In this document: positions 4,469 to 51,793 of the stretch, in pieces | How positions within the stretch are numbered: the first letter of the stretch is position 1 | Layout: each line of letters opens with the position of its first letter | Source: a virus | Direction: 5' to 3' (one strand) | Virus genome (UHGV): UHGV-0170778 | Length of the DNA: 64,000 nt | Program-made: the position numbers and the translations under genes | The notes under the pieces: generated by a model | The model's database searches: none | Seen by the model: the letters and a program-made list of their open reading frames with translations, nothing else | Told to the model about the DNA's origin: nothing

Positions 4469-4497
4469 TATGTGTAGACAATAGAAAGTTATGATAT

Positions 4498-5034
4498 ATG
4501 GTAATAAACAAAATATTAACTAAAATAAAAATATATGATGTAAATGAATTTGCTCACAAAGTGTATGAGAATTATGAATATTTTAATAAGCTTTGTAGAC
4601 AATTAGCGGATGCTTTAGGGTACATGGTAGATGCTAATATCAGATATTCGGACAGTTCTATTGAATTTATACAAGATGACGCAGGAGGGCACCTAATCAT
4701 TAGTATAAATGTTAAATACATTTCAGGGAACAAATATCTGGAGAATTCCACCTATTATAAAGACACAGAGTGTTATGTGGAAAGGATAGGCGATACTTTT
4801 AAGATAATATTCCCATTTGTAAGAATGAATGTAGTACCTGAAAACATACCTCATAGCCAAATTCGAAACTTTAATTTTTTTGTAAATTATTTTGTAGAGA
4901 GTTTTCTTTATTGCTATTTGGGATATAGTTCTTTTACTTTTGATATCTATGACGCATTAGAATCACGTTATGCAGATATTGATCAAAGACGACGAGAGAT
5001 AATTAGTTATAAAAATAGATTTATGGAGGAATAA
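4498..5034 (+). CDS. hypothetical protein
   Basis: 178-aa ORF. Confidence 0.45.
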   Translation: MVINKILTKIKIYDVNEFAHKVYENYEYFNKLCRQLADALGYMVDANIRYSDSSIEFIQDDAGGHLIISINVKYISGNKYLENSTYYKDTECYVERIGDTFKIIFPFVRMNVVPENIPHSQIRNFNFFVNYFVESFLYCYLGYSSFTFDIYDALESRYADIDQRRREIISYKNRFMEE

Positions 5035-5036
5035 AA

Positions 5037-5423
5037 ATGAAAATATATATTAAATGTAATAGTTCTGACTTTAAGATTTCTTATAGAGGAAATTACAATC
5101 TGGATAACAAGCTAGTAAGTAAAGATAAATTCATAAATGATATGAAGAATTTCTTTGCACGTGTTTTACCTGATTTTGGAATCTATTCTGTTATAATCAG
5201 CAATGCAAAATTGGATATGAATATAACAGACACAGATGTAAAAGGTTTTAATTTTGAAGAAGATGACAGATTAGGTATTTCGTTCAATATTTCTGCAAAC
5301 GGTCAAAAATTGAACGTTTCTACAGAATATGTATATGTTGATGATGAATTTGTAAATGCAGATGATATATATGACAGAACAGATGAAGCTCAAGAGATAG
5401 GAGAATTATTGTCTGGTGAATAA
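5037..5423 (+). CDS. hypothetical protein
   Basis: 128-aa ORF, GGAGGAATAAAA RBS. Confidence 0.45.
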   Translation: MKIYIKCNSSDFKISYRGNYNLDNKLVSKDKFINDMKNFFARVLPDFGIYSVIISNAKLDMNITDTDVKGFNFEEDDRLGISFNISANGQKLNVSTEYVYVDDEFVNADDIYDRTDEAQEIGELLSGE

Positions 5424-5473
5424 ATAAATCAAAAAGAGCTATTGTAGCTAAATAAAATAAAGGATTACGCAAA

Positions 5474-5656
5474 ATGAAAATATATACATCTAGATGGGTA
5501 GATAAACCTGGGGAGATGTTAGATTTAGGTAATAAATTAGCTGATTTATTTGTTACTACTAATATACATGAATATCTCAGTGAAGATGAAATGGATCAGA
5601 TAGCAGAAGTTTCAGATATGCTAAAAGATGTTGCTAAGTTGATGAAAGAAAAATAA
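5474..5656 (+). CDS. hypothetical small protein
   Basis: 60-aa ORF, AAGGAT RBS. Confidence 0.4.
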   Translation: MKIYTSRWVDKPGEMLDLGNKLADLFVTTNIHEYLSEDEMDQIAEVSDMLKDVAKLMKEK

Positions 5657-5683
5657 TTTAGTGTATATAGCCGAATAGCCCAA

Positions 5684-5716
5684 GCAGCAAGACTTTGATC
5701 TTGCTGCTGTTTCTAT
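5684..5716 (+). terminator. rho-independent terminator (cassette copy 1)
   Basis: 9-bp stem gcagcaaga/tcttgctgc, 6-nt loop, followed by tgtttctatatt. Confidence 0.6.
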
Positions 5717-5746
5717 ATTAAAACATTAAGAAACTATTAAGATCTA

Positions 5747-5775
5747 TTGAAATTAGGTCAATATTTCGTTATAAT
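5747..5775 (+). promoter_or_regulatory. sigma-A-type promoter (cassette copy 1)
   Basis: TTGAAA - 17 bp - TATAAT. Part of a conserved approximately 60-bp element aaaacattaagaaactattaaga...tcaatatttcgttataatat. Confidence 0.6.
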
Positions 5776-5825
5776 ATGTATGTGTAAAGTAGATAAATTG
5801 ATACACACAGGGAGAAAAATACAAA

Positions 5826-6692
5826 ATGGATACAAATGTTGACTATGAGAATCTGAAAGAAATTACAGTAAACACACAAGAAGAATTAAACAGAATACCG
5901 CTTGATTTCAAAGGAAGAATTTATGTAGAGTTTGGTACTTATGATAATCCAGCTATTGTTGAGAATGAGTATAGTTTAAGGGTTGTTGCTAGAAAAGGTT
6001 CATGTATAGAAGCTAGAAAAGACGCATATGTTGAGGCTGAAGATAAATCAATGGTTATTGCTCGAGAGGAGTCCAATGCAGTTGCGAATGATAATTCAAG
6101 CATTGAGGCTCGAGATAATTCAAAAGTTTATGCATATAATACTTCAAGAATTGTTGCTTGGGGTCGTTCAAGAGTTTTCTCTGAGGATGATGCAATCATT
6201 GAAGCTCGAGAGCATTCGACAGTTAAAGCTTGGAAGAGGTCAATCATCGCTGCATATGATAGGTCAACCGTCATTGCTTACAATAAGTCTAGTGTTGTTG
6301 CTTGGGGTAAGTCAAAAGTTCATTCTGAGAATAGATGCAGCGTTGAGACTCATGATCAGTCAAAGGTGACTGCGTTAGGGTATTCAAAAGTTGAGGCATA
6401 TGATCAGTCAACTGTTCAAGCTTATCAACAGTCAGACGTTGTGTCCTATGATAATTCAGTTGTTGTTGCTAAAGAGTCAGCAATCGTTAATTCTTATGAT
6501 AATTCAATCGTTGTTGCTAATGGGCATTCAAGCGTAGAGGCTGAAGGAAAATCATTAGTTACTGCTCATAACAATTCTAGCGTTGTTGCTCGTGACAATT
6601 CAGACGTTACGGCTATGGATGATTCAACTGTTGAGTCCTATGATAATTCAACTGTTGAGCTTCGCGATAATGCACAGCTGGTCAATGCGTAA
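5826..6692 (+). CDS. octapeptide-repeat protein (about 28 tandem 8-aa repeats, consensus S-x-V-x-A-x-[DN]-x)
   Basis: 288 aa. From about aa 55 the protein is an uninterrupted array such as SRIVAWGR SRVFSEDD AIIEAREH STVKAWKR SIIAAYDR STVIAYNK ... First gene after cassette copy 1. Confidence 0.6.
   Translation: MDTNVDYENLKEITVNTQEELNRIPLDFKGRIYVEFGTYDNPAIVENEYSLRVVARKGSCIEARKDAYVEAEDKSMVIAREESNAVANDNSSIEARDNSKVYAYNTSRIVAWGRSRVFSEDDAIIEAREHSTVKAWKRSIIAAYDRSTVIAYNKSSVVAWGKSKVHSENRCSVETHDQSKVTALGYSKVEAYDQSTVQAYQQSDVVSYDNSVVVAKESAIVNSYDNSIVVANGHSSVEAEGKSLVTAHNNSSVVARDNSDVTAMDDSTVESYDNSTVELRDNAQLVNA
5990..6692 (+). repeat. degenerate 24-bp tandem repeat array (coding)
   Basis: DNA-level periodicity underlying the octapeptide repeats. 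Also generates a spurious periodic ORF in another frame (6028..6369). Confidence 0.6.
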
Positions 6693-6740
6693 AGTTTGTA
6701 GGTAAATATATAAGCAGTCAGGACATTATATTTAACAAAA

Positions 6741-6773
6741 GCAGCAAGAAATTGATCTTGCTGCTATTTTTAT
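6741..6773 (+). terminator. rho-independent terminator (cassette copy 2)
   Basis: Same 9-bp stem gcagcaaga/tcttgctgc, loop aattga, then tatttttat. Confidence 0.6.
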
Positions 6774-6804
6774 GTCCAAAATATTAAAAAACTATTAAGA
6801 ACAC

Positions 6805-6833
6805 TTGAATTTATATCAATATTTCGTTATAAT
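6805..6833 (+). promoter_or_regulatory. sigma-A-type promoter (cassette copy 2)
   Basis: TTGAAT - 17 bp - TATAAT. Flanks are near-identical to copy 3. Confidence 0.6.
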
Positions 6834-6867
6834 ATATGTGTAATAAAAGATAGCGGAGGTTAATATT

Positions 6868-7062
6868 ATGTCTACTCTAAAAGAATTATATAAAACAGAG
6901 AAGGGTTTCGACAAAGGTGCAACTCTTTCAGTTTATGAATACTCAGACGGAAGTATACATTATACTTTTCGTGATAGACTTGGAAAACCTTCTAATGTAG
7001 ATGGTCACAATGAAGCAGAATTTCTGATTGAAACTTTTAATATGCAGAAACAGAATGCATGA
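6868..7062 (+). CDS. hypothetical small early protein
   Basis: 64 aa, GGAGGT RBS, first gene after cassette copy 2. Confidence 0.45.
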   Translation: MSTLKELYKTEKGFDKGATLSVYEYSDGSIHYTFRDRLGKPSNVDGHNEAEFLIETFNMQKQNA

Positions 7063-7295
7063 AGATTGATTTTTGGAAAGGAGAAAGCACAATGCCAAGA
7101 GTATTGACAGTGGACGGTAGTGTAAAAATCGGAGCATACAGTTTTCCTGATAGGAAAAAGCCCTGTATATGTGTCGAGAAAGGAAACGCTTGTGTTGTGT
7201 ACGGCTCTTTCATTGATATTGACCGTGCAAAAGAATTTATGGATGAACTCGCAGCTCTTGTGGGTGCGAGGAATGATAAGGAGGACGAAGAATGA
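7059..7295 (+). CDS. hypothetical small protein
   Basis: 78 aa, ATGA overlap, GGAGAAAG RBS. Confidence 0.45.
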   Translation: MKIDFWKGESTMPRVLTVDGSVKIGAYSFPDRKKPCICVEKGNACVVYGSFIDIDRAKEFMDELAALVGARNDKEDEE

Positions 7296-7462
7296 CAAAC
7301 TACGAGCGAATAAAAAATATGAGCATTGATGAAATGGCGAACGCCATAAAAAAAGGCCATTTCGGAGACCCGTGTGAGCATTGTTCTTTAAGAAACGAAC
7401 CATGTGCATTCTTATGTGTTAAGGGTATTTTAATGTGGCTTAATAGTGGGTTGAAGGAATGA
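7292..7462 (+). CDS. small Cys-containing protein, tandem paralogue of 7459..7650
   Basis: 56-aa ORF below the track cutoff: MTNYERIKNMSIDEMANAIKKGHFGDPCEHCSLRNEPCAFLC... It shares MTN[YF]ERIKNMS[IV]DEMA with the next gene. ATGA overlaps on both sides. Confidence 0.45.
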   Translation: MTNYERIKNMSIDEMANAIKKGHFGDPCEHCSLRNEPCAFLCVKGILMWLNSGLKE

Positions 7463-7650
7463 CGAATTTTGAGCGAATCAAAAATATGAGTGTTGATGAA
7501 ATGGCATCCGAGATTGATAGAATTTCTCATTATTTATGTGATGATTACGGAGGTTACGGATGTAAAGAATGTCCATTTAATTTTTTAGAAAATCGAAATT
7601 GTAATGCAACAGAATTTGCAAACTGGCTCAATAGTGAGGTAAAAGAATGA
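7459..7650 (+). CDS. small Cys-containing protein (paralogue of 7292..7462)
   Basis: 63 aa, MTNFERIKNMSVDEMASEI..., CDDYGGYGCKECPF. Confidence 0.5.
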   Translation: MTNFERIKNMSVDEMASEIDRISHYLCDDYGGYGCKECPFNFLENRNCNATEFANWLNSEVKE

Positions 7651-8018
7651 TAAATAAAACAATGTATGAAAAAGAAAAAGAAATTACTGACAAAATAGAT
7701 GCAAAAGAAGCAATAAAAATGTTTCAAAATCTTATATTTGCAGAAAATCATAGAATTGCAGAAAACCATTGTAGAAAACTTGCAATAAAAGCCCTTGAAA
7801 AGCAAACACCACAAAAGCCTATCAAAGAAACGGTAAATCGTGGTATATCAGCATCGGGCGAATATGACATTGATTTTAATTATCTTTGTCCAAATTGCAC
7901 GACTGTTGTTGGTGACTATGAAACCAATGATTTTTTTATAAATTTTGCCCCGAGTGTGGTCAAGCATTGGATTGGGGTAAGAGGCCTATTAATTATGAAA
8001 TTTATTTTCAAAATCTAA
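7647..8018 (+). CDS. hypothetical protein carrying the first half of a Cys4 zinc ribbon (CPNC)
   Basis: 123 aa. CPNCTTVVGDYETNDFF lies immediately before a T7 run at about 7931-7937. Confidence 0.45.
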   Translation: MINKTMYEKEKEITDKIDAKEAIKMFQNLIFAENHRIAENHCRKLAIKALEKQTPQKPIKETVNRGISASGEYDIDFNYLCPNCTTVVGDYETNDFFINFAPSVVKHWIGVRGLLIMKFIFKI

Positions 8019-8197
8019 CCGCTCTAATGAACAGGTATAACGACGATAATGAAAATTGCATTACATGCAAAGATTGTCTAAATTACGGGCCTTGTGCAGC
8101 CCCATTTAAGTGTGACGATAATACTAGCGTGTATTTCTGTGATGAATTTGTAAACAAAAATTGCAGTGATATTGAGTTAAAGGAGAAAACAAAATGA
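7967..8197 (+). CDS. hypothetical Cys-rich protein; its frame is open from 7931 and begins with the second zinc-ribbon half (CPEC)
   Basis: Track ORF starts at a TTG. The same frame upstream reads FFYKFCPECGQALDWGKRP... with a TGA immediately before the T7 run. Contains CITCKDCLNYGPC. Likely expressed by a -1 shift from 7647..8018, or the two ORFs are split by a homopolymer error. Confidence 0.4.
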   Translation: MDWGKRPINYEIYFQNLTALMNRYNDDNENCITCKDCLNYGPCAAPFKCDDNTSVYFCDEFVNKNCSDIELKEKTK

Positions 8198-8415
8198 GTA
8201 ATCTCACGCTTAACAACGGCTGGATTAGTGTAAATGACAGACTACCGGACACAAGTAGATATGTGATTGCGTGTTCCGATTTACAAGACGTATTCGAATG
8301 TTGGTATCGCACCATAGACAAATGTTGGGTAAGACACGGCCATATAGTTGTTGAAAACATTACGCATTGGCGAGAACTACCTGACCCGCCGATAATGGAG
8401 GAGAGCAAAGAATGA
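8194..8415 (+). CDS. DUF551-like small phage protein
   Basis: NGWISVNDRLPDTSRYVIAC matches the W-I-S-V-x-D-x-LP signature of DUF551. Paralogue at 8774..9046. Confidence 0.5.
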   Translation: MSNLTLNNGWISVNDRLPDTSRYVIACSDLQDVFECWYRTIDKCWVRHGHIVVENITHWRELPDPPIMEESKE

Positions 8416-8522
8416 CTTGTAAAGATTGTCCACATTTTGATGTGTGCAAAATGTATGGTGCATTCCATACAAAGACACGCTGGAAATCATCGGCAACATC
8501 CACGATAATCCCGAATTGTTGA
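8412..8522 (+). CDS. very small CxxC protein (MTCKDCPHFDVCKMY...)
   Basis: 36-aa ORF with ATGA overlap. It shares its N-terminal motif with the 10226..10627 product. Confidence 0.3.
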   Translation: MTCKDCPHFDVCKMYGAFHTKTRWKSSATSTIIPNC

Positions 8523-8773
8523 AAGGAATAAAAAATGTTTAACTATAAAAAAGCCATACAGAGATATAGAGTTGCTAAAATTTTTGGATTACCTTTTAAG
8601 TTACGCATTAAAGTGTTTTTCAGGGGCAAAGGAACTCCAAAAGAAAATTTTGAAAAAAAGATAATTAATCATAAAAAAGGAGAGCAGGAATGACAGATGA
8701 AGATGAAATCAATATTGACATCGATTGCTTATAAGCAATGCTTATATATGCAAAACTGGAAAGGAGTAGAAGA

Positions 8774-9046
8774 ATGAACTTAAATTTTGCTGACATTATT
8801 AAAGACACAAAACTTATTAACCGTTTCTTAAAATGCCACGATGACAGCATTTTAACAGATAACGGTTGGATTAGTGTAAACGACAAACTTCCAAATAACG
8901 ATGAAGACGTAATTGCGCTGTCTGATTCTGGAGATTCACTTGTCTGTCGATATAATAATGATATGAAGCGTTGGGAAAAGTACGGTTTTACATTAGATAT
9001 GAATTTTATTTATTGGAGAGAACTGTACAAATACAGAAAGGATTAA
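8774..9046 (+). CDS. DUF551-like small phage protein (paralogue of 8194..8415)
   Basis: Start moved to the ATG preceded by AAGGAG. NGWISVNDKLPNNDEDVIALSD. Confidence 0.5.
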   Translation: MNLNFADIIKDTKLINRFLKCHDDSILTDNGWISVNDKLPNNDEDVIALSDSGDSLVCRYNNDMKRWEKYGFTLDMNFIYWRELYKYRKD

Positions 9047-9050
9047 GTCA

Positions 9051-9425
9051 ATGACCAACAAAGAAAGAAAACAGACCGGTCTGTTGCATTCAGCAGATGA
9101 ACTGAAACGGCTCATTTTAGAACACCAAGAGTTGCCGATTTTGGTACTTGCCGGAGATAATGCGAACACTGGCGACTATGGCTTTATGAGTTGTAGCCGT
9201 GTACGCGCACAAGAAGGCGAGTTTCTTGATTGTAAGCAGAAAATCGACGCATGCAAGTGCTACACAGATAGGGATGACTTTGAAGACGATGTGGCAGATT
9301 TTTTGGCTGGTGAAGAACAGTATAGAGATTTGCCGGACGATGAATTTAATGCCCTCGTTGAGCAAACAGTCAATGAGTACGATGATTTTTGGAAGCCATG
9401 CATTCTATTGCATGTAGACAATTGA
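9051..9425 (+). CDS. hypothetical acidic protein
   Basis: 124-aa ORF. Confidence 0.45.
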   Translation: MTNKERKQTGLLHSADELKRLILEHQELPILVLAGDNANTGDYGFMSCSRVRAQEGEFLDCKQKIDACKCYTDRDDFEDDVADFLAGEEQYRDLPDDEFNALVEQTVNEYDDFWKPCILLHVDN

Positions 9426-9436
9426 GGAGGATTAAC

Positions 9437-9616
9437 TATGATGCTCTCATGTAATCGATTTGCGTTTATTCCACATTTGTGTCTTGAATGCAAACGTTAT
9501 ATTTGGCTTGAGGGATATAGAAGAGCTGAAGTTTGGAAAAAATCTGTAGATATGAACATCAAAGAAAATATTTGCAAAAGTTGTCTAGAAAAATTTGATG
9601 TTGGGATTGATAAATG
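9437..9616 (+). CDS. small zinc-ribbon-like protein
   Basis: 59-aa ORF below the track cutoff with GAGGAGG RBS. CLECKRY...CKSC. Confidence 0.35.
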
Positions 9617-9627
9617 AAAGGAGAAAA

Positions 9628-9807
9628 ATGGCTGACAAATTTGTTATTTGCAATAACGAAGACGAAATAAGATCGAATGAATCATGTTATGGTAATCAAA
9701 CATTTGAAATTTCGGCAAAAGATCTTATAGCTCTTTTTGAAGGAAAGACACTTGCTGCAATGGTAAATGATGAATACGGTATATTTATTGAAATAGAGCC
9801 AACTTAG
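9628..9807 (+). CDS. hypothetical small protein
   Basis: Start at MADKFVICNN with AAAGGAG RBS (the track start at 9595 lacks an RBS). Confidence 0.4.
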   Translation: MADKFVICNNEDEIRSNESCYGNQTFEISAKDLIALFEGKTLAAMVNDEYGIFIEIEPT

Positions 9808-9850
9808 AATCTCAAGGAGAATCAAGCATGAAATTTATAGAGGTAGAAGA

Positions 9851-10027
9851 ATGAAAGCAGGAGCACATAGAAAAAAGTATAAGTATATACCGCCTGAAAA
9901 GAGAGTAAGCAAAAAAGAGCAAGAAAGGATAATGCGTAGGGAGCTTCGTAAAGCTATGCGAAAAGCAAGTCCGTTTTATGCTTGGGTTGAAGATAATTGT
10001 GAAAGGTATTTTGATGATGAAGTGTGA
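9851..10027 (+). CDS. small basic protein
   Basis: 58-aa ORF below the track cutoff, MKAGAHRKKYKYIPPEKRVSKKEQERIMRRELRKAMRK... Confidence 0.3.
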   Translation: MKAGAHRKKYKYIPPEKRVSKKEQERIMRRELRKAMRKASPFYAWVEDNCERYFDDEV

Positions 10028-10229
10028 AAATTGTATTCATTTTGAGCTTTGTCCTGTGTGGGACAAGGATAACAATCGCCCTTATAAAGACGGCTATAGT
10101 TATTTCTGTCAAAATTACAGTAGATTCATAGATAAATCGCAAATAATCAAGTTACCTATGAAGACAACAGATAAACTGAAAGAAGAATTAACAAAATACT
10201 GTTACGAAAGGTGTGTTGATGAGTTATGA
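10014..10229 (+). CDS. small CxxC protein (MMKCENCIHFELCPV)
   Basis: Start moved to the internal Met, overlapping the upstream stop. A member of the CxxC-x-H[YF]-x-xC small-protein family. Confidence 0.4.
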   Translation: MMKCENCIHFELCPVWDKDNNRPYKDGYSYFCQNYSRFIDKSQIIKLPMKTTDKLKEELTKYCYERCVDEL

Positions 10230-10627
10230 CTTGCAAAGATTGTTACCACTATGGTGTATGCAAATTTTATAATAAGAATTTACCAGAAGAATATGACCAT
10301 ATTGAGTGGCAATGCGACAGTTTCAAGGACAAATCATGCATTGTTGAATTGCCCTGTAAGGCTGGGGAAACAGTATATTGTCTTGATGACATTGTAGATA
10401 ATGAATTATGTGCTGACTGTGAACACTATTATGAGGGTGGTATGGGTGATTATCCGAGTTGTCAAAAAACTCGTTATGGTTTTAGACCTGCAAAATGTAT
10501 CGAAATTATCGAGATAGTCGCAGATAATGATTTCGTGTTGAAATATTACAACGAGTTTGGTGAAAAAATATTTCTCACCAAAGAGGAAGCAGAAGCAAAA
10601 CTGAAGGAGTTGAACGGAAATGAATAA
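10226..10627 (+). CDS. Cys-rich protein (MTCKDCYHYGVCKFY ... CADCEHYYEG)
   Basis: 133 aa, ATGA overlap. Confidence 0.5.
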   Translation: MTCKDCYHYGVCKFYNKNLPEEYDHIEWQCDSFKDKSCIVELPCKAGETVYCLDDIVDNELCADCEHYYEGGMGDYPSCQKTRYGFRPAKCIEIIEIVADNDFVLKYYNEFGEKIFLTKEEAEAKLKELNGNE

Positions 10628-10826
10628 AGAATTAGCAAGATATTTTGTGAAATTGATTGCGGAAGATTTGCAATTTTCATTCAATGGGATGGGTATTCCA
10701 AGTTATCTTTGTGAATGGTTAGAAAATCAGTTAATACAAGAAAATTATGATGAAGTCGAAGAATTTATAAAGAAAAGATATGACGAACGCGAAAGCACAA
10801 GAAAGAAAACACGTGATGAAACTTAA
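10620..10826 (+). CDS. hypothetical small protein
   Basis: 68-aa ORF. Confidence 0.4.
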   Translation: MNKELARYFVKLIAEDLQFSFNGMGIPSYLCEWLENQLIQENYDEVEEFIKKRYDERESTRKKTRDET

Positions 10827-10864
10827 AATTATTGATAGCTTAAAATCAAGGAGGTAAGTTAGCT

Positions 10865-11326
10865 TTGGAAATAGATGAAATGAAATATTTCCTTAGTAAT
10901 GAACTAAGTGAACTTTCAGATATAACAGGGATGTACTTTGATATTCAGTCAGTTGTATATCGAGAAAATTTACATATATGCATTCAAAAATTAAAGTTAA
11001 GGGCATTTCATCAAGATATCTGCTTTGAATGTAAACTAGACATAAACAATGCAATAGCACACTTTGCTTCTTTGATAGCTATGTGCTATGTTATAGATGG
11101 TGAATATTTATATGAAACAGACAGCTTACTTTATGCTAACCAATTCAAAGCACAAAAATTCGTCATCGAAGTTGTAGATAAGTTCAATGAAATATACAAC
11201 AACTGCAAAGATGTAGAAAAGAGCATAAACGCACTTGAAGCATTTTATGAAACAAACTATGAAGTAAACACACAGGTTGACGATGAAAGATCATTTAGTA
11301 TGAGTAAGGATAATAGTGAACTATGA
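10865..11326 (+). CDS. hypothetical protein
   Basis: 153-aa ORF, AGGAGGTAAG RBS. Confidence 0.45.
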   Translation: MEIDEMKYFLSNELSELSDITGMYFDIQSVVYRENLHICIQKLKLRAFHQDICFECKLDINNAIAHFASLIAMCYVIDGEYLYETDSLLYANQFKAQKFVIEVVDKFNEIYNNCKDVEKSINALEAFYETNYEVNTQVDDERSFSMSKDNSEL

Positions 11327-11438: not shown

Positions 11439-13091
11439 TTATTTTACATATGCATAAACAGCTTGACCACAATCATAAACAGGTAACCATCCGTGATCAA
11501 TCATCAATTCTTCATTTGAGGTTCCTTTTCCGTAATCTGTGTTGAAAAGTTGATCGTATCCTCGTTGACGTAAGAGATTTGCAGTTATTTTATTATTCTC
11601 CAACGACCATATTTCTTGAGGAGGTGTATTCTTAACAAAATGCATACCTAATTTGCTATAAACAGATCCGTCAAATTTAGATAAATCACAATAGGAAATT
11701 ATATTGTTCAGATGATAATGAGAGACGGCGTATTTGAAGAGTTTTGAAGCCCCGCCAGTAATTTTATATCTACTGTTTGAGCAAAGTCGAAGAAGTTCAT
11801 ATTGATAGTTTCTATTATATCTAGAATTACCAAAAGTCATCACTTCAACAAGTTCTCCTTTATACATCAATCCTACTCGAATATTCTGTCCTTTACATGT
11901 ATTCTGGATATGATACTTACATAAGAATTCGTCGCATTCTTTCTTACCTATCTCTACAATTTTGCAGTTACGGGCATATATAACTTCTTTCTTTGTCAAT
12001 AGCTGGATGACTTTGTCCCAGTTATCCCAATCAAAGATATGAATACATCTGAATCCGTTTTCTTTAGCAATATTAGTCTTCTCTAAATGGTAACCTTTAT
12101 CTACAGTAACATTCCAATGGTTTCCAACAATGTTGTGAGTATAAGTAGGATCAATTTCTATTAGAATGTTAGTGTCAAGTATGTGTAAGTCGTAAAATTT
12201 TCCACTTAGATAAAATTCTAACTCTCCGTTTTCATTTGCTGCTTTTACAGCATCTAAAAATTTCAAATTTGTTTTAGATATCCTGTTTTTTCTGCACTGA
12301 GCGTCATTTGTCAAGCAGCCATAAGGAACTCCGTATTTCTTCATACATGTTTCTTGTATTTTCATTTGAATTGTTTCAGATTTTGAAGGGTTATCTACTC
12401 CTAAGTGTTCGATCCAAGTCTGCTTTGCTTTTTCGTCTATTTCGTCAGGCCAAAAAGACCCATAGTTCGCTATTCTATGTTCCATAGCTATTTTATTTAT
12501 TGATTCCACCTGCATTGGATTTTCTTTTCCATATCGTTCCATCATTGTTTGTTTTGCTTTTTCTGTAAATTGATCTATTTTAGATGGATTAGCTTTGCCA
12601 TACTTTGCCTCCATAGTTGCTTTGTATTTATCATATAACTGTTTACTCTGTAAAGTAGTAGGAGCACCGTATCGTTCAGTCATAGTTTTCATTGATTTTT
12701 TCTTTATTTCTGGATCGCTCAATGCCCAGTCAACACCAAATTTCTTCTGGTTAGATGCTTTTGCTTTTTCATAAAATTGATCTGATTGCAAAGCAAATTC
12801 AACACCATACTTATCTTTCATAGATTTTCTGTGATGAGCTTGAACTTCTTTGTTTTGCATAGGATGATCTACACCATATTTTTCTCTACATCTCATCTTT
12901 CGTAATTGAGCTTTACATTCTTTGGAACACGGAGGAGGCTGTTGTCTTGAATTCCATATCATTTGTTTACCACAAACAGGGCAAGGAACATAATGATCGT
13001 CATTACATATTTTAGTAGAACTTCTTTCTGGCATAAATATTTTGCCACATATAACACATTTCTTCGGACTCTTTGGAACACCTTTAGGCAT
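11439..13091 (-). CDS. homing-endonuclease-like protein, paralogue A
   Basis: The only substantial minus-strand gene. Architecture: zinc ribbon (CVICGKIF ... CPVCGK), about 9 tandem approximately 33-aa [KR]YG[VA]xxPxQ repeats, PD-(D/E)xK core (ILIEIDPTYTHN ... YHLEKT ... GFRCIHIFDWDNWD), and a conserved C-terminal domain. Start moved to MPKG. Confidence 0.65.
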   Translation of the reverse strand: MPKGVPKSPKKCVICGKIFMPERSSTKICNDDHYVPCPVCGKQMIWNSRQQPPPCSKECKAQLRKMRCREKYGVDHPMQNKEVQAHHRKSMKDKYGVEFALQSDQFYEKAKASNQKKFGVDWALSDPEIKKKSMKTMTERYGAPTTLQSKQLYDKYKATMEAKYGKANPSKIDQFTEKAKQTMMERYGKENPMQVESINKIAMEHRIANYGSFWPDEIDEKAKQTWIEHLGVDNPSKSETIQMKIQETCMKKYGVPYGCLTNDAQCRKNRISKTNLKFLDAVKAANENGELEFYLSGKFYDLHILDTNILIEIDPTYTHNIVGNHWNVTVDKGYHLEKTNIAKENGFRCIHIFDWDNWDKVIQLLTKKEVIYARNCKIVEIGKKECDEFLCKYHIQNTCKGQNIRVGLMYKGELVEVMTFGNSRYNRNYQYELLRLCSNSRYKITGGASKLFKYAVSHYHLNNIISYCDLSKFDGSVYSKLGMHFVKNTPPQEIWSLENNKITANLLRQRGYDQLFNTDYGKGTSNEELMIDHGWLPVYDCGQAVYAYVK

Positions 13092-13139
13092 ATAATAAAT
13101 CTCACTTTCAATATTATTATTAAATATAAGGTACATATA

Positions 13140-13168
13140 ATATAACGAAATTCAAAAACGAATTGAAA
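13140..13168 (-). promoter_or_regulatory. diverged minus-strand copy of the cassette promoter, driving paralogue A
   Basis: The minus strand reads TTTCAA - 17 bp - TTATAT within tttcgttatattatatgt, one mismatch from the cassette tttcgttataatatatgt. Confidence 0.4.
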
Positions 13169-13848: not shown

Positions 13849-15408
13849 ATGATCAAAAAATGTAAGATATGCGGAAAAGAGTTTGAAGCATATGGTACTT
13901 CTGAATATTGCCCAGGCCCTCACTATAAAAAATGTGCTGTTTGTGGTAAAGAGTTTGAATGGGATAGATTGCATCCTAAGAAATGTTGTTCGAGGAAATG
14001 TGCAGCAGCTCTTCGACTTTCTACTATATCATCAGAAACAAGAATATGCGAACTTTGTGGGAAAGAATTTCATCCTAATAATAGTACGCAAAAATACTGT
14101 AAAGATGATCATTACAGACCTTGTCCTGTGTGTGGGAAACCAATTAAAATAACTGAAGACACAAGCATTACTTCTTGTTGTTCTGTTGAATGTAGTAATG
14201 AGCTTAGAAAGAGGACATGTATTGATAAATATGGAGTTCCTATTGTATCTCAGAATGACGAAATACGACAGAAATTGAGTCAAGCTTCAATAGAATCAGA
14301 AAATAAGAGAAAAGAAACATGTATCAAACGATATGGAGTTGAATTCGCTTCTAAATATTCTGAGGTTAGAAGAAAAATATCGAATACAGTTAAAAGCAAA
14401 GAATGTCAAAGTAGAATTAGAAATACGACACAACACAAGTATGGAGTTCCGTTCGTAATGCAATGCGAAGAAGGATTATCTAGATATAGAAAAACAATAG
14501 AATCTAAATATGGAGTTCCATATTTTTGTATGACAGATAAATGCAAAGACTCGCAAGGGAAAGTAATTTCGACTCTAAATAAAAGTTTTGGAAACTTATT
14601 GAGTCAAAATAACATACCATATACATTTGAATACAAGATAGAGAATAGATCGTATGATATTTGCGTCCCTGGATCAAAAACACTGATCGAAATTGATCCT
14701 ACATATACTCATAATGTTATTGGAAATTGTTGGGGACCTGGCTTAGAGATCAATTATCATATAGAGAAGACAAAATTAGCAAATGAATATGGATTCAGGT
14801 GTATTCATATTTGGGATTGGGATGATTGGGATAAGATAATAAATATCATCAGGCCAAAATCCGTCATATATGCTAGAAAATGTAAAATAAGTGTGATTGA
14901 TCGAAAAACAGCAGAATCTTTTGAAATTGATAATCATTTACAAGGCGCTGTAAAAGGACAATCTATTTGCTTAGGTCTATTTTATTGCAATGATCTAGTA
15001 CAGGTCATGACTTTCGGTAAACCTAGGTACAATAAAAACTACGATTGGGAACTGCTTAGACTCTGTTCCATTTCTGATTATGCAGTTGTAGGCGGAGCAG
15101 AGAAGCTATGGAAATATTTCATAAGTAGACATGTATCAGATTCAGTTATTTCTTATTGTGATTTGTCTAAATTCAAAGGAGATGTTTACACGAGATTAGG
15201 TATGTCCTTAGACTTTGTAAACGAACCCAATAAAATATGGTCTAAGAAATCTGAAATGATAACCAATAACTTACTCCTTCAACGAGGGTACGATCAATTA
15301 TTCAATACAAATTATGGAAAGGGGACCTCAAACGAAGAATTGATGCTGGAACACGGATGGTTGCCGGTTTATGATTGTGGTCAAGCAAGATATACATGGA
15401 GTAATTGA
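13849..15408 (+). CDS. homing-endonuclease-like protein, paralogue B
   Basis: Two tandem approximately 60-aa Cys zinc-ribbon modules (CKICGKEF..CAVCGKEF..CCSRKC, CELCGKEF..CPVCGK..CCSVEC), 4 KYGV repeats, LIEIDPTYTHN...YHIEKTKLANEYGFRCIHIWDWDDWD, and C-terminal IYARKCKI...NHLQG...VVGGAEKL. Confidence 0.65.
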   Translation: MIKKCKICGKEFEAYGTSEYCPGPHYKKCAVCGKEFEWDRLHPKKCCSRKCAAALRLSTISSETRICELCGKEFHPNNSTQKYCKDDHYRPCPVCGKPIKITEDTSITSCCSVECSNELRKRTCIDKYGVPIVSQNDEIRQKLSQASIESENKRKETCIKRYGVEFASKYSEVRRKISNTVKSKECQSRIRNTTQHKYGVPFVMQCEEGLSRYRKTIESKYGVPYFCMTDKCKDSQGKVISTLNKSFGNLLSQNNIPYTFEYKIENRSYDICVPGSKTLIEIDPTYTHNVIGNCWGPGLEINYHIEKTKLANEYGFRCIHIWDWDDWDKIINIIRPKSVIYARKCKISVIDRKTAESFEIDNHLQGAVKGQSICLGLFYCNDLVQVMTFGKPRYNKNYDWELLRLCSISDYAVVGGAEKLWKYFISRHVSDSVISYCDLSKFKGDVYTRLGMSLDFVNEPNKIWSKKSEMITNNLLLQRGYDQLFNTNYGKGTSNEELMLEHGWLPVYDCGQARYTWSN

Positions 15409-15942: not shown

Positions 15943-15975
15943 GCAGCAAGATCAAATTCTTGCTGCTATTTTTAT
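15943..15975 (+). terminator. rho-independent terminator (cassette copy 3)
   Basis: Stem gcagcaaga/tcttgctgc, then tatttttat. Confidence 0.6.
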
Positions 15976-16006
15976 GTCCAAAATATTAAAAAACTATTAA
16001 GAACAC

Positions 16007-16035
16007 TTGAATTTATATCAATATTTCGTTATAAT
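16007..16035 (+). promoter_or_regulatory. sigma-A-type promoter (cassette copy 3)
   Basis: TTGAAT - 17 bp - TATAAT. About 90 bp near-identical to copy 2. Confidence 0.6.
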
Positions 16036-16115
16036 ATATGTGTAATAAAAGATAAATAGATGTAATGAGGTGTCACAAAGAACTACAAACCTACCAATAC
16101 AGAAAGGTGTTTATT

Positions 16116-16268
16116 ATGAAGTATTATGTAATATCTTATGAAAACGGAGAAACAAGATACGGTGAATTTGCAGACTATATGAGTGCGTTAAATTATGCAG
16201 AAAGCCGTAACGGAGGTTATGAATTTACGATTGAAGAATATGACAGCGAAGATGATTACTTTTGCTAA
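16116..16268 (+). CDS. hypothetical small protein
   Basis: Track ORF 16065..16268. The internal Met MKYYVISYENG has an AAAGG RBS. Acidic C-terminus. Confidence 0.35.
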   Translation: MKYYVISYENGETRYGEFADYMSALNYAESRNGGYEFTIEEYDSEDDYFC

Positions 16269-17099
16269 TTGAAAGGAGTATTACACATGACTAAAACAGA
16301 ATTGAGAGAGGTACTCGATTTGCATCAGAAATGGCTGAATCTTGAAGACGATGGAGTCAGAGCTAATCTGCATGATTGTGATCTAAGTGGTGCTGACTTG
16401 CAAGGTGTAGATTTAAGTAGGGCTAACCTGCTGAGAGCAAATCTACACGGAGCTGATTTACGAGGAGCATATTTAGGTGGGTGTAACTTGTATGAAGCTG
16501 ATCTCAGTTGCGCAGATATGCAAGGAGCTATCTTTCACAATGCTAACTTTACAGGAGCTAACCTTCGAGAATCAAATCTAAGCGGTTCTGATATGTTTTT
16601 AGCTAACTTGAAGAGAGCAAATTTGCAAAAAGCTAATTTAGTAGAAGCAGACCTATTTCAAGCTAACTTGAAGAGAGCAAATTTGCGTGAATCTGACTTG
16701 CGTGAAGCTAACCTAGTAGGGGCTGACTTACGGGGAGCAGATTTGCGTAGTGCAAGAAATGTACCTTTCATTCCTCTCATTTGTCCGGAAAAGGGTGAAT
16801 TTACTTCTTTCATTAGATGTGGTGACTATATTGTAGAACTTTTGATTCCAGCTGACGCTAAACGGTTTTCTGCAACCACAAGAAGATGCTGGGCAAATTA
16901 TGCTAAAGTTCTGTCAATCACAACATTGTCTGGAGACCCTGTCGAAACGATTAGTGTAACAGATACTGAAGTTTCTCCAAACATTGTATACACAGTCGGA
17001 GAATTTGTATATCCGAATTACTTTAGTGATGACCGGTGGGACGAATATTACGGTGGTATCTATTTTTTCATCAATCGACAAGAAGCTGTAAACCATTGA
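16269..17099 (+). CDS. pentapeptide-repeat protein
   Basis: About 27 consecutive A[DN]LxG-type pentapeptides (ANLHD CDLSG ADLQG VDLSR ANLLR ANLHG ADLRG ...), then an approximately 110-aa non-repeat C-terminus. GAAAGGAG RBS. Confidence 0.75.
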   Translation: MKGVLHMTKTELREVLDLHQKWLNLEDDGVRANLHDCDLSGADLQGVDLSRANLLRANLHGADLRGAYLGGCNLYEADLSCADMQGAIFHNANFTGANLRESNLSGSDMFLANLKRANLQKANLVEADLFQANLKRANLRESDLREANLVGADLRGADLRSARNVPFIPLICPEKGEFTSFIRCGDYIVELLIPADAKRFSATTRRCWANYAKVLSITTLSGDPVETISVTDTEVSPNIVYTVGEFVYPNYFSDDRWDEYYGGIYFFINRQEAVNH

Positions 17100-36370: not shown

Positions 36371-36610
36371 ATGAACAATACAGGTCAGAAACATAAGAAA
36401 TATGTTTTCAATATTTATCAATATGGTAGATTGATTGATACATTAGTGTTCAATGATTTTGGTGCAGCAAAACAATACTATTATAGAACATGGGCTCATT
36501 ATGATGTAGCTACTGTACCAATAGTAGATGGAAAAGAGCTAACTCTAACAGAAGCTGATAGATTATTTGAATACGCTAGATATTTATGGGAGTATAAAAG
36601 TGTCCAATAG
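36371..36610 (+). CDS. hypothetical protein
   Basis: 79 aa. Confidence 0.4.
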   Translation: MNNTGQKHKKYVFNIYQYGRLIDTLVFNDFGAAKQYYYRTWAHYDVATVPIVDGKELTLTEADRLFEYARYLWEYKSVQ

Positions 36611-37733
36611 TTTAACACCTAACAAAAATTTAGGTATCAAACACAATGTAACATTTAGAGTAATAGATGAACGAACTGGAAATGTTGTTCAAACATATCA
36701 AGGGCATAATTCAGCAACAAACTCATTGTTGTATGGAATAGCTCATTATCTAAAAGGTGATGGAGTTCTTAATCAAGGTGCTCATATGCTAAGTTCATTT
36801 GTTCCTAGATATATAAGTTTAGGCACAATGGGACTTTCTAGTCAAGAAGAAGACGAAAATCATTTGCCTGTAGGTATTGGTGGTACCCCTAATCCAGATG
36901 ACCCAAATGATGAAGAAAACAGATTTGTTAATTACATGTCACATAGACCTGGATACGGTGCTGACGGATATGACATAAATCTAAATAATGGTCGAGATGT
37001 TTTTGGATTAGGTAAACCGTTTTCAAAAACTGATAATGTAATATCTGGTACAACAGAAACATTGAAACTAGGAGATATAAACAACGATGGAGTAGTAGAT
37101 GTGAATGATCTGCTTCTTCTAGTTGATTATATGTGTGATAAAGTAACATTATCTGAAAAACAATTGAAATGTGCAGACATTGATAAGGACGGACATATTG
37201 ATTGTGAAGATGTTCAATTGCTTCGCCAAGCTATTGATAATAAAACAGATCTAGGTACAATTGAATATACAAACACAACTTATCAAACAATAAATTGTGA
37301 GTTGATATCTAATTCATTTCCTCGTCAGCTCATTTCGTATAGAGAAATAATACCAGAAACAAAAGCAGAACAGCCTCAAACAATTGATGTTGTATACAGT
37401 GCAATGATATCAACAGGGGCACTATCACAATTCAGAGATCCTGGTAAAGATTATATATTTATAACAGAAGCAGGTTTATGGTCAAGTGATGAATATACTG
37501 ATGGTGCAGATAACGGACTTTTAGCTGGATATCGGCTTGTTCCTACAAATGATAACTATTGGGATATGACCGAACCGTCAAATAGAATGCAGCTTAAGCG
37601 TTCAATCCTGAGAGTAGGAATAAATCAAGTAGTTCAAGTTATTTGGAAAATACAAATAGGGTCAATTGATGATATACTTGATTACTATCATGTAAATACA
37701 ATATCTGATACAGGAAGTGAAACAGATGTATAA
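36567..37733 (+). CDS. tail fibre/receptor-binding candidate with a dockerin type I module
   Basis: GDINNDGVVDVNDLLLLVDYM ... ADIDKDGHIDCEDVQLLRQAI is the duplicated 22-residue calcium-binding dockerin repeat (DxNxDGxVxxxD + helix), at nt about 37071-37245. The true start may be the GTG at about 36600, which has a GGAG RBS. Confidence 0.6.
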   Translation: MNTLDIYGSIKVSNSLTPNKNLGIKHNVTFRVIDERTGNVVQTYQGHNSATNSLLYGIAHYLKGDGVLNQGAHMLSSFVPRYISLGTMGLSSQEEDENHLPVGIGGTPNPDDPNDEENRFVNYMSHRPGYGADGYDINLNNGRDVFGLGKPFSKTDNVISGTTETLKLGDINNDGVVDVNDLLLLVDYMCDKVTLSEKQLKCADIDKDGHIDCEDVQLLRQAIDNKTDLGTIEYTNTTYQTINCELISNSFPRQLISYREIIPETKAEQPQTIDVVYSAMISTGALSQFRDPGKDYIFITEAGLWSSDEYTDGADNGLLAGYRLVPTNDNYWDMTEPSNRMQLKRSILRVGINQVVQVIWKIQIGSIDDILDYYHVNTISDTGSETDV

Positions 37734-41564: not shown

Positions 41565-41598
41565 TAGCTGCTCTTTCATTAGGGCAGCTATTTTTATG
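41565..41598 (+). terminator. rho-independent terminator after capsid gene
   Basis: tagctgc / gcagcta stem, followed by tttttatgtg. Confidence 0.45.
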
Positions 41599-41666
41599 TG
41601 TAAATTTCGTTAAATAACCTTTATTAAATCGTTATAATAGTTGTAATGGTAGTAAAGGTGGTTTAT

Positions 41667-43280
41667 ATGACTAAAATATGTGCAGAATGCGGGAAAGAAT
41701 TTGAAGGAAAAGGAAAACAAAAGTATTGTAATAGAAAACACTATAGAAAATGTGTTATATGCGGGCAGAATTTTGAAATTTCGCGAGATCAACTTCAAAA
41801 TGGAGACCAAAGGAGAACCTGTTCTAAAAAATGCACTATAGAGCTTAGAAAACAAACTAATACTAAGAAGTATGGAGGCGTAGCTCCGGCGTGTTCAGAA
41901 TCTGTTAGAGAAAAGATGCAATCTACTACCTTAGAAAGATATGGAGTGAAGCATGCAGCGCAAGCTGATATTTTCAAAGAGAAGTCAAAGCAAACAGCTC
42001 TATCTAAGTATGGTGTTGAATATTATGCAAAAACAGACGAAAGCAAACAAAAACTAACGGAACGATGGAGAGACGAAGAATATAAACGCAAAGTTGTTTC
42101 TAAAATAGCAGCTACAAATCTTGAGAGATATGGGTTTAGAAGTTCTATGCAGTCATTAGATGTTCAATTACGAAATGTAACATCTAAGATGACAGATTCA
42201 TCTAAATATCAAACCTTTCTGAAATTCAAAAAGAATCCAAGAGAAGTTATAGAAAGTTTAGAATTAGACCATAAACCTACTTTATATGAATTAACTTCAT
42301 ATATAGGAGTAAACGAAAGCACTGTCGGTGTATATATACATTTGAATAATTGCGAAGATTTGATTTCCCATAGATCTTCTATTATGGAAACTGATGTTGT
42401 TGCTTTTTTGAAAGAATTAGATCCGGAAATTGTCATATCTAGATGTGATAGAACTATCATTTCTCCATATGAAATAGACATCTACTTACCTGAATACAAA
42501 ATAGGGATAGAATGTAACCCAACAGCTACACATAATGTAGATATAAATGTGTTCGACAATAGTAAACCTACAATGTCCATAAGTTACCATCAAATGAAAA
42601 CTAACATGTGTGAAGATAAGGGTGTACGATTGATTCACATATTTGGATATGAATGGAAATATAAACAAAAAATATTAAAATCTATAATCAGCAATGCTTT
42701 ATGTAAGAACAAAAATAGAATATATGCAAGAAAATGCGAGATACGAAAAGTAGACAGTTATGAATGTTCTAAATTTCTAAATGAAAATCATCGACAAGGG
42801 AAAGTAGGTTCGTCTGTAAGATTAGGGCTGTATTTTGAAAATAAACTAGTTTCTATAATGACATTTGGAAAATTAAGAAAAACTATAGGCTCAAATGGAG
42901 ACGGGTATGAACTGTTAAGATTCTGTTCCACTCTAAATACATGTGTTGTTGGTGGTGCAAGTAAACTGTTTAATTATTTCATAAAAACATACAGTCCAAA
43001 TTATATTAGATCTTTTTCAGATAGAGCACATACAACAGGAAATATTTACAAATTATTAGGTTTTGTAGAAGTTAATAGAAGCACTCCTGGATATTGTTGG
43101 GTGAATATCAATACAGAAAAAGCATATCATAGAATGAATGCACAGAAACATAATATAAAGAAATTTCTAAATGATGATAGCATTGATCTATCTAAGTCAG
43201 AACGAGAAATAATGACAGAACATAGATTCGCTAGAGTATTTGATTCAGGTACAATTACATGGGAATGGCATTCTATATAG
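41667..43280 (+). CDS. homing-endonuclease-like protein, paralogue C
   Basis: CAECGKEF..CVICGQNF..CSKKC zinc ribbon, 4-5 KYGV-type repeats (ERYGVKHAAQ, SKYGVEYYAK, ERYGFRSSMQ), IGIECNPTATHN...YHQMKT...GVRLIHIFGYEW core, and C-terminal IYARKCEIRKVD...NHRQG...VVGGASKLF. Start moved to MTKICAECG, which has an AAAGGTGG RBS. Confidence 0.6.
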   Translation: MTKICAECGKEFEGKGKQKYCNRKHYRKCVICGQNFEISRDQLQNGDQRRTCSKKCTIELRKQTNTKKYGGVAPACSESVREKMQSTTLERYGVKHAAQADIFKEKSKQTALSKYGVEYYAKTDESKQKLTERWRDEEYKRKVVSKIAATNLERYGFRSSMQSLDVQLRNVTSKMTDSSKYQTFLKFKKNPREVIESLELDHKPTLYELTSYIGVNESTVGVYIHLNNCEDLISHRSSIMETDVVAFLKELDPEIVISRCDRTIISPYEIDIYLPEYKIGIECNPTATHNVDINVFDNSKPTMSISYHQMKTNMCEDKGVRLIHIFGYEWKYKQKILKSIISNALCKNKNRIYARKCEIRKVDSYECSKFLNENHRQGKVGSSVRLGLYFENKLVSIMTFGKLRKTIGSNGDGYELLRFCSTLNTCVVGGASKLFNYFIKTYSPNYIRSFSDRAHTTGNIYKLLGFVEVNRSTPGYCWVNINTEKAYHRMNAQKHNIKKFLNDDSIDLSKSEREIMTEHRFARVFDSGTITWEWHSI

Positions 43281-43426
43281 GGAATAGTAATCGTTCAAAA
43301 TATGGTGCAGATTGGTTCACACATACCAATAAATATGTAAAAGTAGAAAAAGAAACTTGTATATACATTCAGAATTCTAATTTTGTTATTTCTATACCCA
43401 AAATATTAAGAAACTATTAAGAAGAC

Positions 43427-43455: not shown

Positions 43456-43512
43456 ATAGGTAGTCAGGTAGATAAAAAGTAACAAACTACATGAATTATA
43501 GGAGATTTACAA

Positions 43513-51746: not shown

Positions 51747-51793
51747 GTTTAGATAGACCATATTTCGTTAATAAATATGAAGGAGTGGTTATA

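Follow-up and report, generated by a model that had tools for sequence, protein, structure and literature searches.

Near-identical blocks of DNA recur between genes in the virus genome UHGV-0170778, and the question raised by this locus is what they do there. We analyzed a stretch of 64,000 nucleotides (hereafter, the window). Human-gut metagenome contigs of ~119 kb contain parts that match it at 100% identity; in ERZ1307801 NODE_54, it spans positions 54804-118803. The original prediction for this DNA described five units, each (except one, promoter only) a hairpin terminator followed by an A+T-rich block, a -35 element, TATAAT, and a conserved leader, and took them to define a co-regulated early regulon. 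We re-read each unit at its site and found all five at the coordinates claimed. Their sequences support a composite of an intrinsic terminator and a sigma-70/sigma-A-type promoter in each unit. We think it probable that these cassettes join a terminator to a strong promoter for the host sigma factor, equipped with a block resembling an upstream (UP) element, that they are also a substrate for recombination, and, by analogy, that they are used early in infection.

The cassettes form a discrete repeat family

A profile hidden Markov model built from all strain copies recovered exactly five full cassettes in the window, all on the + strand, with E values of 2e-19 to 5e-17. The next-best match in the window had an E value of 0.14, and the search returned no intermediate copies and no copies on the - strand. 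The 44-nt core pattern is matched exactly at four sites, where 0.00 would be expected (none in 100 shuffles). The 18-mer TCAATATTTCGTTATAAT has five exact matches, all on the + strand; allowing up to three mismatches gives six matches against 0.42 expected, the sixth being a three-mismatch match on the - strand. A repeat search of the window returned a five-copy family of 73 nt and a four-copy family of 116 nt. Copy 3 repeats copy 2 without a change (100% identity of 15970-16054 to 6768-6852), and the 58-nt core of cassette 5 is identical to that of cassette 4. All of the cassettes are intergenic, lie in one orientation, and are correctly placed 5' of a Shine-Dalgarno (SD) site and start codon.

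Promoter elements and the upstream block

The promoter was read correctly in the original prediction, as all five copies have TATAAT 17 bp past a TTGAAA or TTGAAT. With matches at 10-11 of the 12 consensus positions, the cassette promoters are the top-ranked + strand sigma-70-like sites in the window (60 kb). In this A+T-rich DNA, promoter-like matches overall are no more numerous than in shuffled sequence.

Directly 5' of the -35 element is an A+T-rich block of 27 nt, beginning AAAAYATTAARAAACTATTAAGA, which is invariant among strains but for three or four single positions. With +1 taken as the purine 7 nt after TATAAT, its A-tracts lie at -43 to -39, -54 to -49, and -62 to -59, which centers them near -41, -52, and -61, one helical turn apart. 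This spacing matches the phasing and positions of UP-element subsites, and the block may be a UP-element-like site for the alpha-subunit C-terminal domain (alpha-CTD), a reading drawn from phasing and conservation rather than from a consensus match. The block also holds the direct repeat TATTAAGAA-N2-TATTAAGAA, 11 bp apart, which could equally serve another protein.

Conservation upstream of -35, as originally claimed, is real: the block is invariant across strains and neighboring positions are free to vary. Copy 1 deviates from the form first given for the block (aaaaCattaag...gaTCTAttgaa). The leader was described too broadly, as atatgtgtaataaaagata is exact in copies 2 and 3 and only partial in copies 1, 4, and 5. 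Separately, the leaders of copies 1, 3, and 4 share the motif (G)TAGATAAA (5795-5803, 16050-16058, and 43467-43475), ~13-22 nt past the predicted start. Copies 5 and 6 lack this motif, and a ~21-nt deletion relative to L020 and L027, two of the sequences compared with the window, truncates it in copy 2 here.

Conservation across strains

The strain set contains 18-19 distinct cassette sequences, a count that depends on the flank included, from about ten strains. Three stretches are invariant across it: AAACTATTAA (-62 to -41), TTGAA (the -35 element), and CAATATTTCGTTATAATAT (-23 to -5). The four bases 5' of the -35 element (-39 to -36) and the six or seven bases that open the spacer (-29 to -24) occur in at least nine states. 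The variable positions are those that a primary-sigma holoenzyme leaves unread, which supports a host-polymerase promoter with a functional upstream block. In strain L018, the flanking DNA shows 11-13% differences, and none fall on the 68 invariant positions of its two cassettes. At 87-89% flank identity, about eight changes would be expected, and by our own calculation the chance of seeing none is 0.88^68, or ~2e-4. The strongest unexpected conservation is that of CAATATTTCGT in the spacer, rather than that of the upstream block.

Hairpins and their loops

A hairpin terminator had been assigned to every unit but the one at 43400. In copies 1, 2, 3, and 5, hairpins at 5683-5708, 6740-6765, 15943-15966, and 57278-57305 have folding energies of -15.7 to -18.3 kcal/mol, z scores of about -5, and a T-run after each; in copy 4 none is significant (z = -0.5). 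A sixth copy, which lies outside the window, likewise has a stable hairpin of this energy class with a T-run. The hairpins of copies 2, 3, and 5 are followed by the tail UAUUUUUAU, while the tail of copy 1, GUUUCUAUAU, is weaker. By sequence, the G+C-rich hairpin with an immediate U-run is that of a predicted intrinsic terminator. In a terminator scan, the hairpins of copies 2 and 3 score on both strands. A search of Rfam gave no match at the gathering threshold anywhere in the window.

Three of the hairpins do share the identical stem GCAGCAAGA/TCTTGCTGC. The "different loops" ascribed to them are actually one loop in two orientations. We compared the loop sites (5692-5699, 6749-6756, and 15952-15957) with the orthologues in L045, L018, L019, L020, and L031. 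The copy 1 loop is CTTTGA here and its exact reverse complement, TCAAAG, in L020 and L045; the copy 2 loop is AATTGA here and TCAAAT in L018 and L019; and the copy 6 loop is TTAAAT in one strain and ATTTGA in another. The 6-nt loop variants are small "flip-flop" inversions between inverted-repeat arms, polymorphic among strains.

Individual cassettes and the genes behind them

Cassette 1 (5683-5792, +) begins with the hairpin at 5683-5708 (stem AGCAGCAAGA, loop CTTTGA), followed by the A-tract block at 5720-5746, the -35 element TTGAAA at 5747-5752, TATAAT at 5770-5775, and then the leader. Its predicted target is the octapeptide-repeat gene at 5826-6692, a single gene bracketed by cassettes 1 and 2. 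Cassette 2 (6740-6852, +) has its hairpin at 6740-6765 (loop AATTGA), its block at 6778-6804, TTGAAT at 6805-6810, the -10 element at 6828-6833, and a leader up to 6852. It would end the single-gene unit of cassette 1 and drive an island of small open reading frames (ORFs) at 6868-11326. Cassette 3 (15943-16054, +) has its hairpin at 15943-15966 with the loop TCAAAT, the inverted form, followed by the block at 15980-16006, the -35 element at 16007-16012, and the -10 element at 16030-16035. Its predicted targets are a 50-amino-acid ORF (16116-16268) and a pentapeptide/DUF5758 gene (16269-17099).

Cassette 4 (43400-43472, +) is a promoter only, with the block at 43400-43426, TTGAAA at 43427-43432, and the -10 element at 43450-43455. 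It lies directly 3' of a homing-endonuclease-like gene (41646-43280), and its predicted targets are an 86-amino-acid ORF (43513-43773) and a pentapeptide gene (43837-44427). Cassette 5 (57278-57386, +) has a different hairpin (57278-57305, -16.0 kcal/mol), followed by the block at 57314-57340, the -35 element at 57341-57346, and the -10 element at 57364-57369; its target would be the phosphohydrolase-like gene at 57396-58310. The original list of downstream genes stands as to octapeptide repeats, pentapeptide repeats, and a metal-dependent phosphohydrolase, but these do not all follow directly, as a small ORF precedes each pentapeptide gene (16116-16268 and 43513-43773). The cassettes sit between structural modules, and all of them are 5' of accessory genes or genes of unknown function.

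Copies beyond the window

Outside the window, near-identical contigs have a sixth full copy and a variant seventh promoter. The sixth copy lies ~1.5 kb past the window end, 5' of a 147-amino-acid ORF and a UvrD-type helicase gene. The variant seventh promoter, ~5 kb beyond copy 6, keeps the upstream block and has TTGAAT and TATAAT 17 bp apart, but the sequence between these two differs. It would drive eight tRNA genes (Ile-TAT, Lys-TTT, Leu-TAG, Gly-TCC, Leu-TAA, Pro-TGG, Ser-TGA, and Thr-TGT) in a cluster interrupted by an ORF, located with the promoter at L022 20586-20880 and L031 3260-750 (-). There are no tRNA genes within the window. Scanning metagenome contigs with the invariant 19-mer gave 28 loci, of which 10 are true cassettes, and all 10 are orthologous to copies 1-6. 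The genome therefore probably has six full copies, where the count for its remaining ~35 kb rests on this 19-mer scan.

We then searched more widely for the cassette. A 12-kb megablast query matched no cultured phage, and a sensitive blastn search with the cassette gave only chance A+T-rich matches to Lak phages (E = 8e-3). In IMG/VR, the exact 18-mer has three unrelated single matches. The upstream-block 18-mer has 55 matches there, none with the promoter pattern after it, and these mostly read as openings of coding sequences, e.g., ATG ATT AAA AAA CTA TTA AGA. The 19-mer has seven scattered single matches in bacterial genomes, which give no clue to the host. Relatives with 53-64% capsid identity have no cassette copy and at most ordinary consensus promoters. 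Therefore, the repeat is a species-level feature. In one such relative, L008 (64% capsid identity), the syntenic site after the capsid gene has a terminator followed by TTGACA and TATAAT at 17-bp spacing, in sequence that is otherwise unrelated, which indicates that the architecture is older than this particular repeat.

Probable recombination between cassettes, and the strain-variable island

The variable positions fall into types that are shared between non-orthologous cassettes. Type GAAGAC/ATTATAT, found here in copies 4 and 5, is the type of copy 2 in ERZ1034928, whose own copies 4 and 5 have other types; type GATCGC/ATTAAGC occurs in copy 6 and in copy 1 of L020; and copies 2 and 3 here share one variable-block type. 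Homology to L018, L019, and L026 stops at 6843-6853, the 3' edge of cassette 2, past which these strains have unrelated genes (YopX, GIY-YIG, and others) until ~9036-9050. Gene content 3' of copy 2 differs in L018, L019, L020, L026, and L027. The sharing of types between positions, together with the breakpoints at cassette 2, supports recombination of cassettes with each other. On this sequence evidence, the cassettes appear to homogenize each other and to mark the left edge of a hypervariable island, an aspect that the original prediction missed. Several assemblies break within cassettes, as is expected of repeats.

Some further variation was seen in and around this region. The variable island contains small ORFs duplicated in tandem (7290-7338/7457-7505 and 8215-8281/8861-8927, with DNA 86% and 70% identical), one of which is a DUF551-type protein according to the contig annotation. 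Gene content also varies at 4485-5475: L045 lacks 4658-5490, and L020 has an additional gene of 189 amino acids at ~5453. L052 lacks 59047-59525, including a 91-amino-acid ORF. A cassette-like stretch beside this indel (59474-59505, 26/32 matches) is within chance for A+T-rich DNA, and we do not claim it.

The ATTTCGTTA element and other motifs

The invariant spacer overlaps the short element ATTTCGTTA, which occurs 11 times in the window against 0.86 expected. Six of these occurrences are outside the cassettes, and five of the six are just 5' of genes. The looser pattern TTCGTTAWW occurs 13 times against 2.96 expected. Outside the cassettes, sites of one or the other are at 4027, 13143-13151 (-), 13819, 28289, 41604, 44435, and 51762, and beyond the window at L022 20691-20702 and L031 ~250. 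They lie three times directly 3' of a terminator and once before the tRNA cluster, where ATTTCGTTA stands alone 53 nt 3' of the seventh promoter.

Two of these sites belong to possible degraded cassettes. The unit at 41565-41639 (+), 5' of a homing-endonuclease-like gene, has a hairpin at 41565-41590 with the tail CTATTTTTATGT as in the cassettes, ATTTCGTTA at 41604-41612, and TTAAAT, a 17-bp spacer, and TATAAT at 41610-41639. The unit at 51712-51772 (+) has a hairpin at 51712-51741 (-19.2 kcal/mol), the tail TTTTTATGT, and ATTTCGTTA at 51762-51770, just before the SD site of a gene starting at 51794. The same order of terminator, ATTTCGTTA, and SD is also found in L031 at ~290-240. The sites outside cassettes could be either decayed cassettes or a separate cis-element.

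Three further motifs were considered and dropped. The T4-type late box TATAAATA, an alternative promoter class, is not enriched in the window (16 versus 12.2 expected). An operator-like dyad, TGAAAT-N9-ATTTCG, was abandoned because position -30 varies between A and T among copies. A reading as SPO1-late-like promoters (CGTTATA-N17-19-GATAAA) was set aside, as the consensus is uncertain and the pattern is missing in copies 5 and 6. Finally, the motif ACCTTWTAT(A) occurs seven times against 2.07 expected, with six of the seven intergenic and 5' of genes, including the neck-gene region, and is conserved in L053. It is found at 13124 (-), 13168, 13807, 17505, 45557, and 48776, with variants at 22108 and 15520, and is a candidate middle or late promoter element.

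What the cassettes may do

According to the explanation we favor, a G+C-rich hairpin and U-run would stop transcription arriving from upstream. Twelve nucleotides on, the three phased A-tracts (~-61, -52, and -41) would provide a UP-element-like docking or curvature site for the alpha C-terminal domains. A very strong promoter for the host primary-sigma holoenzyme would then follow, made up of TTGAAW, the 17-bp spacer, a perfect TATAAT, and, beyond it, a discriminator rich in A+T and a purine at 7 nt; host polymerase should fire the cassettes upon DNA entry. The products would be those of accessory genes set among late structural operons, namely the octapeptide-repeat gene, the small-ORF island, the two pentapeptide-repeat genes, and the phosphohydrolase gene, and, outside the window, the helicase module and the tRNA cluster. 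With 60-115 bp of near-identity, the cassettes would also be substrates for homologous recombination, with gene conversion homogenizing the copies, and would offer a fixed left junction for swapping downstream gene sets between strains. Early timing and contact with alpha-CTD are attributed here by analogy.

Several observations weigh against this explanation. The timing and strength of the promoters are predictions, and copy 4 has no significant hairpin. Compared position by position, the block matches the Escherichia coli UP-element consensus only in part, to a moderate degree. Standard sigma contacts do not account for the invariant spacer (CAATATTTCGT, -23 to -13), and as the seventh promoter keeps the block, -35, and -10 with another spacer, it is an element in its own right. 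The predictions include no + strand terminator from copy 3 (16035) up to 41565 or from copy 4 (43455) up to 51712, and on paper these two units read into baseplate/head genes and into gp13-like neck and lysin-like genes. Without a predicted terminator ahead of late-type genes, the units of copies 3 and 4 are not cleanly "early." The "co-regulated early regulon" of the original prediction is therefore plausible by analogy but too simple. Furthermore, the strain comparison showed no insertion or deletion bounded by two cassettes and no circle junction, and the variable island meets a cassette at its left edge but not at its right one (~9036-9050).

The spacer could have a role of its own if the promoters took two inputs, with the invariant ATTTCGTTA (spacer and start of the -10) and/or the TATTAAGAA repeat bound by a phage or host factor besides the host sigma. 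We regard this as unlikely, although it is compatible with the favored explanation. The factor might be a repressor shutting the cassettes off or a sigma-appropriating activator sustaining ATTTCGTTA promoters later. There is a small chance that control is divided in time, with host sigma-A using the UP block and -35 when infection begins and a phage factor reading ATTTCGTTA later, to repress or to sustain. It is similarly doubtful that the "terminator + ATTTCGTTA" units without a -35, at homing endonuclease genes, the tRNA cluster, and others, form a second, phage-specific promoter/operator class made from the same modules, analogous to the middle-promoter stem-loops (PmSLs) of phage nt-1. The excess of ATTTCGTTA, mostly 5' of genes, would be explained, as would the recurring order of terminator, ATTTCGTTA, and SD (41565/41604, 51712/51762, and L031) and the ATTTCGTTA standing alone before the tRNA cluster. 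The spacer is also invariant in all strains where the adjoining spacer positions vary, and the upstream block stands without ATTTCGTTA in the seventh promoter, so the two are separable. However, just 7-10 nt separate the motif from the SD site at 13819, 44435, and 51762 and in L031, and a start ~7 nt past the -10 would cut into that site. No dyad symmetry typical of operators was seen and no candidate regulator was identified. The sites outside cassettes were found by an exact 9-mer search, which carries ascertainment bias, and conservation data for them are thin. They can be explained as remnants of decayed cassettes, and degraded "1/2" elements are common among the promoter-early stem-loops (PeSLs) of T4-type phages (PMC4122927).

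Lineage-specific invariant sequence around the -10 and the placement of cassettes among structural gene blocks, in the same direction, would also fit promoters of a phage-encoded sigma factor or polymerase, of a middle or late class, whose likeness to sigma-70 promoters came from the A+T-rich genome. In copies 1-4, CGTTATA is followed 17-19 bp on by GATAAA, which resembles the SPO1 late consensus, CGTTAGA/GATATT. Nevertheless, this explanation is very unlikely. All three canonical elements occur together, with optimal 17-bp spacing and phased A-tracts, and the variable positions are exactly those that a primary-sigma holoenzyme does not read. L008 has its TTGACA/17-bp/TATAAT promoter after a terminator at the syntenic site. 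The leaders of copies 5 and 6 lack GATAAA, there is no excess of the T4 late box TATAAATA, and the Pfam hits for the window and ~17 kb of flanks (~81 kb) include no domain of a sigma factor or RNA polymerase. Least likely of all is that the repeat is primarily selfish or mobile DNA, resembling a miniature inverted-repeat transposable element (MITE) or forming the recognition or co-conversion tract of homing endonucleases, with an incidental promoter. Three DUF7487/PHROG 3339 genes do adjoin the degraded unit at 41565 and cassettes 3 and 4, types of cassette have moved from one position to another, and the invariant 19-mer is long. Yet when the copies and their flanks are aligned, homology runs from the hairpin into the leader, and neither terminal inverted repeats nor target-site duplications are seen. 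Every copy keeps one orientation and an intergenic position correctly 5' of SD and start codon, and cassettes 1, 2, 5, and 6 have no adjacent endonuclease gene. Furthermore, an endonuclease site present six times in its own genome would be self-destructive unless protected.

Phage and host context

The window is 33% G+C, with nearly all genes on the + strand and with GGAGG Shine-Dalgarno sites. Its virion proteins are T4-like by Pfam: a Gp23-type capsid protein, an S77 prohead protease (Peptidase_S77), a tail sheath protein, a tail lysin, and a gp13-like neck protein (Phage_T4_gp13), with a T4-type portal (Portal_T4) just upstream of the window. The capsid protein is at most 29% identical to that of any cultured phage, and the best cultured matches are from phages of Bacillus, Streptococcus, and Listeria. 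A virion-module protein (36567-37733) has a dockerin domain. The ribosome sites, 33% G+C content, dockerin, and capsid relatives together point to a host in the Bacillota with a sigma-A polymerase.

We also observed three free-standing homing-endonuclease-like paralogues (DUF7487, PHROG 3339/559) at 11439-13136 (-), 13849-15408, and 41646-43280. They contain repeated CxxC zinc ribbons, and one has a Mom-like C-terminal region. The gene at 11439-13136 is the only clear - strand gene in the window. Upstream of the window, 5' of the portal module, are GTP cyclohydrolase I and radical-SAM genes (L020, L021 1-895), which suggest a 7-deazaguanine-type DNA modification pathway.

Comparison with known systems

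The early promoters of phages T4 and SPO1 are read by unmodified holoenzyme of the host, with sigma-70 or sigma-A. In T4 they show A-rich conservation upstream, and in SPO1 they are read at once. The cassettes share with both classes near-consensus -35 and -10 elements and additional upstream A+T-rich conservation, with immediate use being known there (SPO1: PMC13401047). However, the T4 and SPO1 classes were mapped by experiment and follow a loose consensus, whereas the cassettes are near-identical repeats predicted to be promoters.

UP elements of the rrnB P1 type are A+T-rich from -40 to -60, with proximal (~-42) and distal (~-52) subsites bound by alpha-CTD, and Bacillus subtilis sigma-A promoters have phased upstream A-tracts. 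The cassettes are similar in having strain-invariant A-tracts near -41, -52, and -61 directly 5' of the -35. They differ in that the match to the E. coli consensus is partial and the block is a direct repeat. Lambdoid morons are genes with their own promoter and terminator inserted between core genes, typically expressed in the prophage state and with control signals individual to each. The octapeptide-repeat gene (5826-6692), lying between the cassette 1 promoter and the cassette 2 hairpin after the tail sheath module, is arranged like a moron. Unlike in morons, the control signals here are a repeated family, and nothing here indicates lysogeny.

The closest known system is that of the PeSLs, a precedent in T4-type phages that the original prediction missed; judged by sequence, the cassettes belong to this known kind of regulatory and recombination cassette. 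PeSLs have been described in phi1/RB49, PST/T4, and nt-1/KVP40 (Arbiol et al. 2010, PMC2839356; Comeau et al. 2014, PMC4122927). They combine a terminator stem-loop with a sigma-70-like early promoter whose upstream region is A+T-rich; ~100 bp are conserved, and most PeSLs lie 5' of ORFans in hyperplastic regions. They have been implicated in modular shuffling, in which recombination among them gives insertions, deletions, and replacements (mini-circles), and degraded half-PeSLs and the PmSL variant are known as well (PMC2839356, PMC4122927). The cassettes agree with PeSLs in all three parts and in the ~100 bp of conservation, and with the PST type in having the stem-loop just 5' of the promoter. 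They are likewise intergenic, before ORFans or accessory genes among conserved core modules, with degraded half-elements, and they are found where genes have been replaced in particular strains. The structural genes of the phage are T4-like as well (Gp23 capsid, T4 portal, gp13, and S77 prohead protease).

There are also clear differences. This phage has 6-7 copies versus ~50 per genome in phi1/RB49, and its copies are far more alike, with 58-nt cores identical in pairs. The invariant spacer element (ATTTCGT) is not described for PeSLs, and no event bounded by two cassettes and no mini-circle was found here. The host is probably of Gram-positive type, and kinship with T4 is remote (capsid <30% identical to any cultured phage).

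These comparisons leave the current understanding of phage transcription unchanged, and the residual novelty is the invariant ATTTCGTTA element. The cassettes do supply a predicted transcription map for an uncultured ~119-kb gut phage lineage without a close cultured relative, in which the two pentapeptide-repeat genes, the octapeptide-repeat gene, the phosphohydrolase gene, and the variable small-ORF island are probable immediate-early candidates for host takeover or anti-defence. The cassette itself may serve as a compact strong promoter-plus-insulator part for a Bacillota-type host. Furthermore, the cassettes would extend the PeSL principle past the Gram-negative T4 group, with regulatory cassettes that double as recombination scaffolds and new genes plugged in behind a strong promoter.

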